Below, one piece after another: positions 14,730 to 17,210 of a stretch of DNA of 64,000 bases. Below the pieces are notes generated by a model. It was not told the origin of the DNA, made no database searches, and worked only from the letters and a program-made list of their open reading frames with translations. Source of the DNA: an uncultured Gammaproteobacteria bacterium (lineage in GTDB: Bacteria > Patescibacteriota > Microgenomatia > Levybacterales > GWA1-39-11); contig CAZDED010000008.1 in the NCBI GenBank assembly GCA_964504535.1, positions 12,673 to 76,672 of the forward strand, written 5' to 3'. The number at the start of each line of letters is the position of its first letter. The first letter of the stretch is position 1. Position numbers and translations under genes: made by a program.

Positions 14730-17210
14730 ATGAAGTTCTTGAGAAATTATTTTAAGAAAGAATACTTTGGGGGCGCCTTTCTAATTGTGGCTGCAATGGT
14801 AGCCAATCTTATCAATTTTGCGTTTAACGCATATCTTGGGCGAAAACTTGAGCTTTCAGAATTTAGTCTTATTAGCCTTTTTGGGAGTTTTTATTCTTTC
14901 GCAAACATTGGGTTTGGAGCTTTAGGGTCGGTCATAAATTATCGGGGAGGTTTTTTGATTGAAAGATACGGAGTTGCAGCGTCTGAAGCATTTCTTTTCT
15001 ATATCCAAAAAAAAGCGCTTATGCTTTCCAGTATTGCAAGCGTCCTGTGGCTTTTGACAATTCCTTTTTTGGCTCAATACTTTCATACAGCAAATTACTT
15101 GCTCTTTATTCTTTTTATTCCAATTTGGTTTTTTGGTTTTATTACAGCAGTAAATAGGGGATATATTTCCTCTAAACTTCAGTTTGGGCTTCTTGGTGGA
15201 GTAATTATATTAGAGCCAGTTGTGAAGTTTCTCTCGGCCATTTTTTTTGTTGGTAGCAAGGTCCCCTCACTAATATACTTATCGATACCAATTGCCATAA
15301 TGAGTGTTTTTGTTGCAACTCAGTTTTTGCTTGGAAGGAGAAAGAAAAAAAGTTTATCCAATGTTGAAGCTAAAAATGCTCACATCTTTCCGTTAAAGTA
15401 TCTACTTACATCTTTATTGGCTGGTCTTGCAACATTGTGCTTCCTCTCATTTGACGTGATACTCGCACGTCATTATTTAACTCCGGTTCAGGCAGGGCAG
15501 TATGCTCTTATTTCTCTTATCGGAAAGATGGTTTACTTTATGTCAGGTCTTTCTTCGCAATTCCTTGTACCACTAGTAAGTCACTACGAGGGTGCAAGAA
15601 AAGATAGTAAAAAACTTTTTTACAAAATTCTTGGAGTGTCTATCGTAATGACGTTAGCAGCTTTTATTCCGTTGGGTATTCTTTCGCAGTTCTTTGCACC
15701 ATTAATGTTCGGAGCAAAAGTTTATCCTGTGCTGAAATTTCTTCCAATGTTTTTGTTAGCAATGATGGCATTTAGCATCTCAGGAATATTTGTCGGTTAC
15801 TATCAGGTTAGAAGAATATATATCTTCCCCATTGTTGCTTTCTTGCTTTCATTTGTTCAGATAGCACTTATCAGTATTTTGCACAGCGGAGTTTCTGAAA
15901 TAGTTGCTGCAATGGTGATATCTTCAGCTGTTAACTTGTCTGTCATGTTGGTGCTTCATTTCAATGAAAGGCTTGTAAAAGTAATTGAGTTCAACCTTGG
16001 AGATTTCGTCGCATTATTCAAAAAACAAACAGTTGCTGATCTTGCCGACAATAAGCTGAACATTTTAATTTTTAACTGGCGTGATACAAAACACAAATGG
16101 GGTGGTGGTGCAGAAGCATATCTTCATGAGCTAGGAATGAGATGGGTGGCTGAAGGAAATTCCGTAACTATTTTCTGTGGAAATGATTATGCAAATAAAA
16201 GGGATGAGATGGTAAATGGAGTAAGAATTATGAGACGTGGAGGATTTTATACAATGTATGTTTGGGCAACGGTCTATTACGTGTTCAACCTGCGCGGAAA
16301 ATATGATTTAGTGATAGATTCCGAAAATGGAATTCCTTTTTTTACCCCCTTATTTTGCCGCAAACCAATATTTCTTTTAATTCACCACGTTCATCAAGAA
16401 GTATTTACTAAACACTTAAAGTTTCCGTTTTCCCAAATAGCTCGATTAATTGAAGGTAAGCTTATGCCATATGTCTATCGAGAGAAGCAAATTATAACTG
16501 TAAGCGAGTCGTCAAAAAAGGAAATAATAAAATTGGGCTTTGTTGATTCATCAGATATAAAAATTGTTAACCCCGGAATTGAGCTCTCGAAATTTGGAAA
16601 AGCAAAAAAAACCAAAAATCCGTCTATTGTTTATATCGGAAGGTTAAAGCCATATAAGAATGTTGAAATTGCAATAAAAGCATTTAGAAAAGTTGTAGCT
16701 TCTTATCCCCATGCTGTTTTTCATATTGCAGGAGAGGGAGAAAGCAGGGAGAGCCTTGTGGCGCTTTCAACACAGTTGGGATTATCAAAGTCTATCATAT
16801 TTCATGGCAAGGTAAGCGAGAGAAAAAAAGCAGAGCTTCTAGCAACATCATGGGTTGCCGTTCAGCCGTCAATGATAGAGGGTTGGGGGATTACGGTTAT
16901 TGAGGCAAATGCATCAGGTACCCCGGTAATAGCATCAAATGTGAACGGGCTTAGAGATTCCATTATAGACAAGAAAACTGGGCTACTTGTTCGAGTTAAA
17001 GACGTTAATGAATTTGCGCACGCAATGCTCAGGACCCTAGACTCAAAAAGCTTTAGAGCCAAGATCACAAAATCTGCCTATGCTTGGTCCAAAAATTTTG
17101 ATTGGAATAAAAGTGCAAACTCTTTCTTTATGGTGATTCAAAACGCAGTAGTATCAGTTGGCCCTAGATCATCAATAAATATAGCAGTAAGAGAAAAAGC
17201 ACTTCAATGA
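14730..17210 (+). CDS. Fusion of a MOP/Wzx-type polysaccharide flippase (about 12-14 TM) with a C-terminal GT4 (GT-B) glycosyltransferase
   Basis: N-terminal ~430 aa is a polytopic membrane domain (Polysacc_synt-like). C-terminus has GT4 features: NWRDTKHKWGGGAE, EGWGITVIEANASGTPVIAS (E-x7-E region). Confidence 0.6.
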   Translation: MKFLRNYFKKEYFGGAFLIVAAMVANLINFAFNAYLGRKLELSEFSLISLFGSFYSFANIGFGALGSVINYRGGFLIERYGVAASEAFLFYIQKKALMLSSIASVLWLLTIPFLAQYFHTANYLLFILFIPIWFFGFITAVNRGYISSKLQFGLLGGVIILEPVVKFLSAIFFVGSKVPSLIYLSIPIAIMSVFVATQFLLGRRKKKSLSNVEAKNAHIFPLKYLLTSLLAGLATLCFLSFDVILARHYLTPVQAGQYALISLIGKMVYFMSGLSSQFLVPLVSHYEGARKDSKKLFYKILGVSIVMTLAAFIPLGILSQFFAPLMFGAKVYPVLKFLPMFLLAMMAFSISGIFVGYYQVRRIYIFPIVAFLLSFVQIALISILHSGVSEIVAAMVISSAVNLSVMLVLHFNERLVKVIEFNLGDFVALFKKQTVADLADNKLNILIFNWRDTKHKWGGGAEAYLHELGMRWVAEGNSVTIFCGNDYANKRDEMVNGVRIMRRGGFYTMYVWATVYYVFNLRGKYDLVIDSENGIPFFTPLFCRKPIFLLIHHVHQEVFTKHLKFPFSQIARLIEGKLMPYVYREKQIITVSESSKKEIIKLGFVDSSDIKIVNPGIELSKFGKAKKTKNPSIVYIGRLKPYKNVEIAIKAFRKVVASYPHAVFHIAGEGESRESLVALSTQLGLSKSIIFHGKVSERKKAELLATSWVAVQPSMIEGWGITVIEANASGTPVIASNVNGLRDSIIDKKTGLLVRVKDVNEFAHAMLRTLDSKSFRAKITKSAYAWSKNFDWNKSANSFFMVIQNAVVSVGPRSSINIAVREKALQ

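Follow-up and report, generated by a model that had tools for sequence, protein, structure and literature searches.

A conserved MOP-GT4 fusion protein of Patescibacteria and the four-domain glycosyltransferase module to which it belongs

Introduction

Can a flippase-like membrane domain and a cytoplasmic glycosyltransferase (GT) be parts of one polypeptide, and if so, what would such a protein do at the membrane? The question is raised by a gene at positions 14730 to 17210 of a 64,000-nucleotide stretch of DNA, hereafter the window (assembly GCA_964504535.1, contig CAZDED010000008.1, positions 12,673 to 76,672 of the forward strand), which is recorded as an uncultured Gammaproteobacteria bacterium and placed by GTDB in the Patescibacteriota (Levybacterales, GWA1-39-11). 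An earlier reading made from the letters and their translations (the sequence-only reading) had described the gene as a Wzx/MOP-type flippase fused in frame to a GT4 glycosyltransferase, and had suggested that the final sugar addition is coupled directly to export of the lipid-linked unit.

How Wzx-type flippases recognize completed lipid-linked units, and whether there is a physical coupling to the enzymes producing such units, is still unsettled because the flippase and the glycosyltransferases are normally separate, weakly interacting proteins. Lipid translocase domains joined to a cytoplasmic enzyme or regulator acting on the substrate are known from MprF and from M. tuberculosis MviN, a MurJ-pseudokinase protein. 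However, the flippase domain of MprF is not of the MOP type, and the partner in MviN is not a glycosyltransferase.

In this study we characterized the gene, its relatives and its surroundings computationally. The encoded protein is a genuine, conserved two-domain membrane protein, in which a 12-transmembrane (TM) MOP domain is followed by a conserved amphipathic helix, a linker of about 15 residues and a cytoplasmic GT4 domain. We also found that the gene belongs, together with its upstream neighbour, to a larger module that is encoded as a single polypeptide in many relatives, and we weigh below what this module may do.

Results

The C-terminal half is an intact GT4 domain

The gene (14730..17210, + strand) is a single unbroken open reading frame (ORF) with an ATG start, encoding 826 aa plus stop. 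Its C-terminal part, residues 444–811 (16059..17162, + strand), is a cytoplasmic glycosyltransferase domain of the GT4 (GT-B) type. Pfam places Glyco_transf_4 (PF13439) at residues 459–620, with 48.3 bits against a cut-off of 28.5, and Glycos_transf_1 (PF00534) at residues 620–785, with an E-value of 2e-42 and 145.1 bits against a cut-off of 26.4. A motif scan located the E-x7-E catalytic motif (E717...E725; 16878..16904, + strand), and both of its glutamates are invariant in an alignment of 52 sequences, as are G637-R-L-x3-K643 and G459-G-A-E462. The latter forms a glycine-rich loop at the N-terminus of the domain (residues 459–462; 16104..16115, + strand) and is preceded by an invariant N449-W-R-D452. 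The peptide quoted in the sequence-only reading, EGWGITVIEANASGTPVIAS, corresponds to residues 717–736 (nt 16878–16937) and contains E717-x7-E725; the GT4 motifs reported there for the C-terminal half are thus confirmed by the Pfam scan and by their invariance.

The full-length AlphaFold model (predicted local distance difference test, pLDDT, 90.5; predicted TM-score, pTM, 0.81) displays an alternating beta/alpha pattern in this region, with the first strand at residue 444. The nearest solved relatives by sequence are the retaining GT4 enzymes MshA, PimA, PimB', PglA, TarM and GlgA, and the domain is, judged by homology, a retaining GT-B enzyme of CAZy type GT4 with intact catalytic motifs. 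Entries of G-protein-coupled receptors (GPCRs) also appear among its matches in the PDB, because crystallization constructs of such receptors often carry an insert of P. abyssi GlgA, a GT4 protein. A Pfam 'GT4-conflict' match raised the idea of a defence system, which we rejected: PADLOC returned nothing for either this protein or the product of the adjoining upstream gene, and the context is one of envelope biosynthesis.

The N-terminal half has the MOP fold

Residues 1–428 (14730..16013, + strand) constitute a 12-TM domain of the MOP superfamily (PST/Wzx-like) with N-in/C-in topology, as indicated by hydropathy, lysine/arginine (K/R) bias, structural modelling and relatives. Hydropathy reveals about 12 hydrophobic helices, arranged as two sets of six (6+6) around a K/R-rich central loop, and the loops of this half contain 29 K/R residues on the predicted cytoplasmic side and 6 on the external side. 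This bias yields the N-in/C-in topology and hence places the GT4 domain on the cytoplasmic side, where nucleotide sugars are available. Two AlphaFold models contain 12 long TM helices followed by an amphipathic helix at residues 413–428, and the short linker that leads from the membrane domain to the GT4 domain (residues 429–443; 16014..16058, + strand) is non-helical in the AlphaFold model.

When the model of residues 1–440 (pLDDT 86.5, pTM 0.84) was compared with the PDB using Foldseek, the top 50 matches were all MurJ, WzxE or MATE proteins, with E-values of 1e-6 to 2e-3 and TM-scores (TMq) of about 0.55–0.75. The match to WzxE, the lipid III flippase (9g95), had a TMq of 0.72 and a TMt of 0.75. 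The modelled fold is that of the MOP superfamily. Because a direct Pfam scan of the N-terminal half was empty, the MOP assignment is based on the fold and on relatives. Among 23 relatives of this domain (alignment A2), five match Polysacc_synt (PF01943; best E-value, 1.9e-8), no other family was matched more than once, and the Pfam models of MurJ, MatE and PelG were not hit. A stand-alone relative (P0126), which matches the A2 profile at an E-value of 1e-138, exceeds the Pfam gathering cut-offs of both PF13440 (43.3 vs 23) and PF01943 (32.3 vs 28.2). Transitive homology through these relatives therefore points to a PST/Wzx-like family. MurJ or MATE identity at the family level was rejected: the fold alone cannot separate these families, whereas the relatives match PST Pfam models only. 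The domain thus groups with MOP proteins rather than with an unrelated transporter family, and the flippase-like classification of the sequence-only reading stands.

A profile search of PDB sequences with the N-terminal domain returned orexin-receptor chains only, which we judge to be noise from TM composition. These matches and the GPCR entries with a GlgA insert are traps for automated annotation.

Within the membrane domain, R38, G144, D242, H248, A255, G256, Y258, G265 and G328 are invariant, and K266 is at least 90% conserved. R38 lies in the motif NAYLGR at the end of TM1, while D242, H248, A255-G256-x-Y258 and G265 lie in TM7–TM8. R38 and the TM7–TM8 motifs form a pseudo-symmetric pair on TM1-2 and TM7-8, which in MurJ and Wzx structures are the helices surrounding the central cavity of the transporter. 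Conservation of the polar residues R38, D242, H248 and K266 argues for a constraint beyond mere anchoring.

The fusion is conserved in Patescibacteria

The identical 826-aa product occurs, with the same neighbours, on at least five independently assembled contigs from different samples (Logan SRR12487045, ENA ERZ4216102, NCBI). Its relatives fall into more than 100 protein clusters with 36–66% identity covering 95–99% of the length, a conservation over the full length that is far beyond chance. We scanned GTDB species-representative genomes and carried out a stop-to-stop ORF analysis of the 80 best loci. At least 579 species-representative genomes carry the fused gene family; the hosts include Woese-, Gottesman-, Levy-, Curtiss-, Ames- and Daviesbacteria, Parcubacteria lineages and Saccharibacteria. 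The MOP and GT4 domains share one ORF at 79 of the 79 evaluable loci, none of which has a stop codon in the linker, and the linker flanks D425, I445 and L446 are invariant or at least 90% conserved.

These data bear on whether separate flippase and GT4 genes were merely merged through a mistake in assembly or sequencing, or whether the gene is a decaying pseudogene. Metagenome-assembled genomes can in general carry indels, and we found no specific support for an artefact here. Recurrence of the same product on independent contigs, retention of the fusion across the clusters and at every evaluable locus, conserved linker flanks and intact catalytic motifs make such an artefact exceedingly improbable. 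Neither in the homologous genomes nor on the independent contigs does a stop or frameshift separate the halves. The in-frame fusion proposed in the sequence-only reading is thus supported by fold, topology, motifs and conservation alike. Its description as uncommon applies to characterized systems, and the characterized Wzx proteins that we know of stand alone. It does not apply to Patescibacteria, where the gene family is widespread. In addition, members of the MOP subfamily occur joined to GT2 and to other domains.

The contigs of loci L008–L080 are often titled 'uncultured Gammaproteobacteria', 'Pseudomonadales' or 'Bdellovibrionales' (TPA_asm bins) despite their Patescibacteria-type module. 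These labels, including that of CAYPEN010000003.1, the contig of L004, look like placeholder or incorrect taxonomy.

The gene is part of a split four-domain module

Immediately upstream lies a partner gene of 749 aa (12479..14728, + strand), whose TAA stop codon (14726–14728) ends 1 nt before the ATG at 14730; the two reading frames differ. PDB sequence matches and motifs assign two GT2 domains, GT2a and GT2b, to its product. GT2a (12479..13453, + strand) consists of a polyprenyl-phosphate GT domain similar to DPMS, GtrB and ArnC (residues 1–235) and a TM hairpin (about residues 270–325). Residues 7–300 match P. furiosus DPMS (5mlz, E-value 2e-22), GtrB (5ekp) and ArnC (9bhc) in the PDB, and the alignment with ArnC runs nearly end to end (residues 7–300 against 8–298 of 327). 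DPMS, GtrB and ArnC are enzymes that place a sugar on polyprenyl phosphate. GT2b (13517..14728, + strand) is a BcsA-like membrane GT2, with its catalytic part at residues 347–632 and C-terminal TM segments at about residues 597–747; residues 347–631 align to the catalytic core of the cellulose synthase BcsA (7lby, E-value 2e-11). It has a D-A-E-D motif at about residue 440, TED at 532–534 (nt 14072–14080) and QRSRW at 569–573 (nt 14183–14197). TED and QxxRW, the hallmarks of processive membrane GT2 synthases, are kept in all 55 long fusion relatives (55/55).

Synteny of the two genes is also conserved. In three relatives with 37–44% identity, a GT2-GT2 gene of 744–776 aa lies directly against the MOP-GT4 gene or overlaps with it, and the genes farther downstream vary. 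At 40 of the 80 loci, all four domains are contained in one ORF of ~1,550–1,610 aa, and at a further 18 loci GT2b, MOP and GT4 share an ORF; GT2 is therefore fused to MOP-GT4 at 58 of the 80. At 16 loci the GT2 gene is separate and lies immediately upstream, which is also the state of the window, the MOP-GT4 ORF or its GT4 part is cut by a contig edge at 4, and 2 have no upstream GT2. The arrangement in the window is thus the split form of a four-domain megaprotein of ~1,580 aa, GT2a-GT2b-MOP-GT4, here encoded by two abutting genes. The joining of the four domains in many relatives and their separation here constitute a Rosetta-stone signal that the four activities cooperate. The sequence-only reading had missed this four-domain context, which opens other mechanistic readings.

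The module as a proposed membrane-bound assembly line

We consider the most likely function, with a probability of roughly 55%, to be that of a membrane-bound assembly line, in which the glycosyltransferases assemble a glycan on a lipid and the MOP domain tethered to them carries this lipid-linked glycan across the membrane. We infer the order of the reactions, transport by the MOP domain, the lipid-linked species moved and the final polymer as follows. GT2a would place a sugar on polyprenyl phosphate at the cytoplasmic face, and GT2b and GT4 may then extend the lipid-linked sugar, which would most likely be linked through polyprenyl phosphate. The MOP domain would transfer the lipid-linked product across the membrane, and GT-C-like membrane enzymes with genes nearby would draw on it at the outer leaflet. 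Candidate cargoes are the glycan extended by GT2b and GT4 ('last sugar then export') and the polyprenyl-P-monosaccharide made by GT2a; the Wzx-like GacK of streptococci has reportedly been proposed to flip a polyprenyl-P-monosaccharide. Coupling of the final sugar addition to export, as put forward in the sequence-only reading, is plausible. Among the window ORFs scanned there is no phosphoglycosyl-transferase of the WecA/MraY or WbaP type, which leaves GT2a as the sole candidate lipid-priming enzyme at the locus. Nor did we find a recognizable Wzy among these ORFs (Wzy_C occurs near the module in one relative only, L005), and in both respects the locus differs from the classical Wzx/Wzy pathway.

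Several points weigh against an assembly line of this kind. GT2b is similar to processive synthases, enzymes that themselves move the polymer across the membrane, and a separate flippase would then seem redundant. To our knowledge, extension of sugars linked to polyprenyl monophosphate is unusual in bacteria. Residues 1–440 of the window protein match no Pfam family, even at E ≤ 10. The donor and acceptor of the GT4 domain cannot be read from its sequence, as no characterized NCBIfam equivalog was reached and all matches were far under their cut-offs (the best, MshA, scored 104.8 against 462.5). Finally, one subfamily has kept only the C-lobe (TM7–12) of the MOP domain, and such a lobe could not alone act as a conventional 12-TM alternating-access transporter.

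The presence of a synthase-type GT2 and a GT4 beside a MOP domain also brings the Pel system to mind. There, pelF and pelG are always adjacent, PelF is a GT4 enzyme always paired with the 12-TM PelG, and in the model of the pathway PelF makes the polymer while PelD/E/G serve its export (PMC7112168). The window protein would by analogy be a covalent PelG-PelF, with the GT4 domain acting as the polymerase and the MOP domain forming, or helping to form, an export path for a free growing polysaccharide instead of flipping lipid-linked units. In both cases a 12-TM MOP-like protein and a GT4 are set to cooperate at the membrane, PelF is among the NCBIfam matches of the window GT4, the synthase-type GT2 fits a synthase-dependent logic, and polysaccharide deacetylases are present in some of the relatives' neighbourhoods. 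However, PelG and PelF are separate polypeptides, the partner in the window is a GT2-GT2 protein, and no pelD-, pelE- or pelA-like genes adjoin the module. The PelF score (NF038011) was 49.1 bits against a cut-off of 100, lower than that of many other GT4 families; no member of the family matches Pfam PelG, the recurrent match being PST (PF01943/PF13440); and the analogy would imply two polymerases per module. Membership of the Pel family was rejected on the PelF score, the unmatched PelG and the missing pelD/E/A neighbours, and we regard a Pel-like mode of action as unlikely.

Variants of the MOP subfamily

The MOP subfamily comprises 6,129 clusters (50% identity) at E ≤ 1e-3 and 938 at E ≤ 1e-30. 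Stand-alone members of ~410–470 aa exist, and further fusions include MOP-GT2, GT2-MOP, MOP-GT4-GT2 and MOP-APH(kinase)-GrpB (relatives P0150, P0155, P0181, P0146, P0226, P0131, P0159 and P0125). The MOP-APH-GrpB fusion recalls the choline-dependent TacF system, and in L004 the module is likewise followed by a gene resembling choline kinase. The C-lobe-only variants, which align with positions ~200–440 of the profile (TM7–12), lie between GT2b and GT4 (P0069, P0109, P0112–P0118, P0120, P0101 and P0106; also L086, 6001–10275). In L086, no N-lobe gene adjoins the half-MOP module. Such a half-MOP might perhaps work as a dimer or through the TM helices of GT2b.

These variants bear on a further possibility, namely that a MOP-derived domain which no longer transports serves as a scaffold, tethering GT4 beside a translocating BcsA-like synthase whose polymer GT4 would prime or decorate. 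The C-lobe-only variants still carry GT4 in the same context; the MOP domain is more diverged (~33–38% identity) than the whole protein (~37–45%); the subfamily is fused to varied cytoplasmic domains; and GT2b has its own TM segments as well as processive-synthase motifs. Yet most members retain a full 12-TM MOP fold that is modelled with high confidence, the cavity-lining helices hold invariant charged or polar residues, the stand-alone members have the length expected for working transporters, and a single TM helix would suffice as an anchor. On balance, loss of transport strikes us as improbable, and the assembly line with a transporting MOP domain is the reading that we prefer.

Gene neighbourhood

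Downstream of the module, a cytidine diphosphate (CDP)-sugar branch (17289–20901, + strand) encodes a glucose-1-phosphate cytidylyltransferase, which reaches 399 bits on the RfbF equivalog model TIGR02623 (cut-off, 300), together with an SDR epimerase/dehydratase, a protein resembling dTDP-sugar-3,5-epimerases and a DRL oxidoreductase that contains a SAF domain. Its gene content suggests a CDP-activated modified hexose as a donor. As listed, the ORF starting at 19501 shares 116 nt with the preceding gene, and gene callers use a later start (427 aa). Five further glycosyltransferases, four GT2 and one GT4, are encoded downstream, and the window contains no second member of the MOP family.

Two polytopic membrane proteins of 519 aa (25623–27182, + strand) and 536 aa (27173–28783, + strand) have no Pfam match and may be Wzy-like. 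The former matches the LA_3751/3752 putative-GT model weakly (54.6 against a cut-off of 200) and is homologous (E-value 2e-58) to an unannotated 512-aa protein at the same position in the distant locus L003. The latter has no detectable relation to a protein of equal size in L086. In the relatives' loci, GT-C enzymes of the PMT_2 type are common near the module.

Right after the glycan cluster, a sortase gene (30911–31444, + strand) is flanked by genes for unannotated single-TM proteins (434, 204 and 520 aa, within 28792–33194), which may be sortase-anchored, glycosylated surface proteins. A sortase gene also lies beside the module in L086 (5043–5603). Farther downstream are genes for a GT-C-like DUF2079 membrane protein (37519–38970, − strand), a polysaccharide deacetylase (40916–41836, + strand) and an Acyl_transf_3 O-acyltransferase (57113–58141, + strand).

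A gene shortly upstream of the module (10410–12125, − strand) encodes a DsbD-type TM domain joined to Redoxin/AhpC and Thioredoxin_10 domains. This fusion is also present on the independent contig L001, while L004 has a related redoxin/thioredoxin gene nearby without the DsbD domain. An unusual fusion, of 510 aa, joins an RnfD/NQR2-like membrane domain to FAD-/NAD-binding oxidoreductase domains beside an ApbE flavin transferase (42685–44952, − strand). The window also contains a gene for a small RRM_1 RNA-recognition-motif protein of 124 aa (7116–7490, + strand) and genes for tRNA-Ala(GGC) and tRNA-Leu(TAA) (2005–2076 and 4997–5078, − strand).

Discussion

Both domains of the protein are of well-known kinds, and the unusual part is their fusion, above all in the four-domain form. 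Our full-text searches of the literature, with most subscription-journal papers outside their reach, found no description of a MOP-GT4 or a four-domain fusion. An exact-sequence cluster look-up gave no name for either the 826-aa or the 749-aa protein, and relatives in public records are unnamed or called 'glycosyltransferase'; JGI attaches both COG names and labels some relatives 'XagB'. Current annotation thus hides the transporter half.

The module shares features with several known systems. The membrane domain has the 12 TM segments and two 6-TM lobes of Wzx/PST flippases such as E. coli WzxE (9g95) and S. pneumoniae TacF; its model superposes on WzxE, its relatives match Polysacc_synt and Polysacc_synt_3, and its gene lies in a glycan-biosynthesis cluster. 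It differs from these flippases in being fused to GT4 (in relatives also to two GT2s) and in being too diverged for the Pfam MOP models. GT2a, a homolog of DPMS, GtrB and ArnC with a TM hairpin, stands beside a MOP domain in a manner similar to three-component systems, which combine a GT2 (GtrB/CsbB/GacI), a flippase (GtrA-family or GacK) and a GT-C enzyme. For the GT-C enzyme, clear PMT_2 matches lie near the module in relatives, and the weakly LA_3751-like and DUF2079 proteins are candidate GT-C-like proteins in the window. However, three-component systems contain neither a BcsA-like GT2 nor a GT4, and each component is a protein of its own. GT2b resembles the processive GT2 synthases (BcsA, hyaluronan and chitin synthases, PgaC and XagB) in its BcsA-aligned core, TED, QxxRW and flanking TM segments, but has no PilZ or other known accessory domain and is tied to a polyprenyl-phosphate GT, a MOP domain and GT4.

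A more far-reaching version of the assembly line, which we offer tentatively and hold to be clearly less likely than the general one, is that Patescibacteria carry the module as a self-contained unit. As one protein, or as two that are translationally coupled, it would hand its product straight from the enzymes into the flippase and build a surface glycoconjugate specific to the lineage, perhaps with polyprenyl monophosphate as the carrier by analogy with archaeal N-glycosylation. If true, this would be a natural case of substrate channelling from enzyme to flippase, and the variants with only a C-lobe would point to a half-MOP translocase (6-TM, perhaps dimeric) of a kind not seen before.

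The identification of the protein is solid, and its function, which we infer from sequence and structural models, is experimentally tractable. A covalent fusion found in nature provides a complex of fixed stoichiometry for cryo-electron microscopy and reconstitution, and the ~1,580-aa form is especially suited to both. The module occurs in hundreds of species of Patescibacteria, bacteria that rely on surface structures for their episymbiotic lifestyle and about whose envelope chemistry almost nothing is known. Its wide presence and this surface-dependent lifestyle make it a strong candidate for a major, lineage-typical pathway of surface glycoconjugate synthesis.

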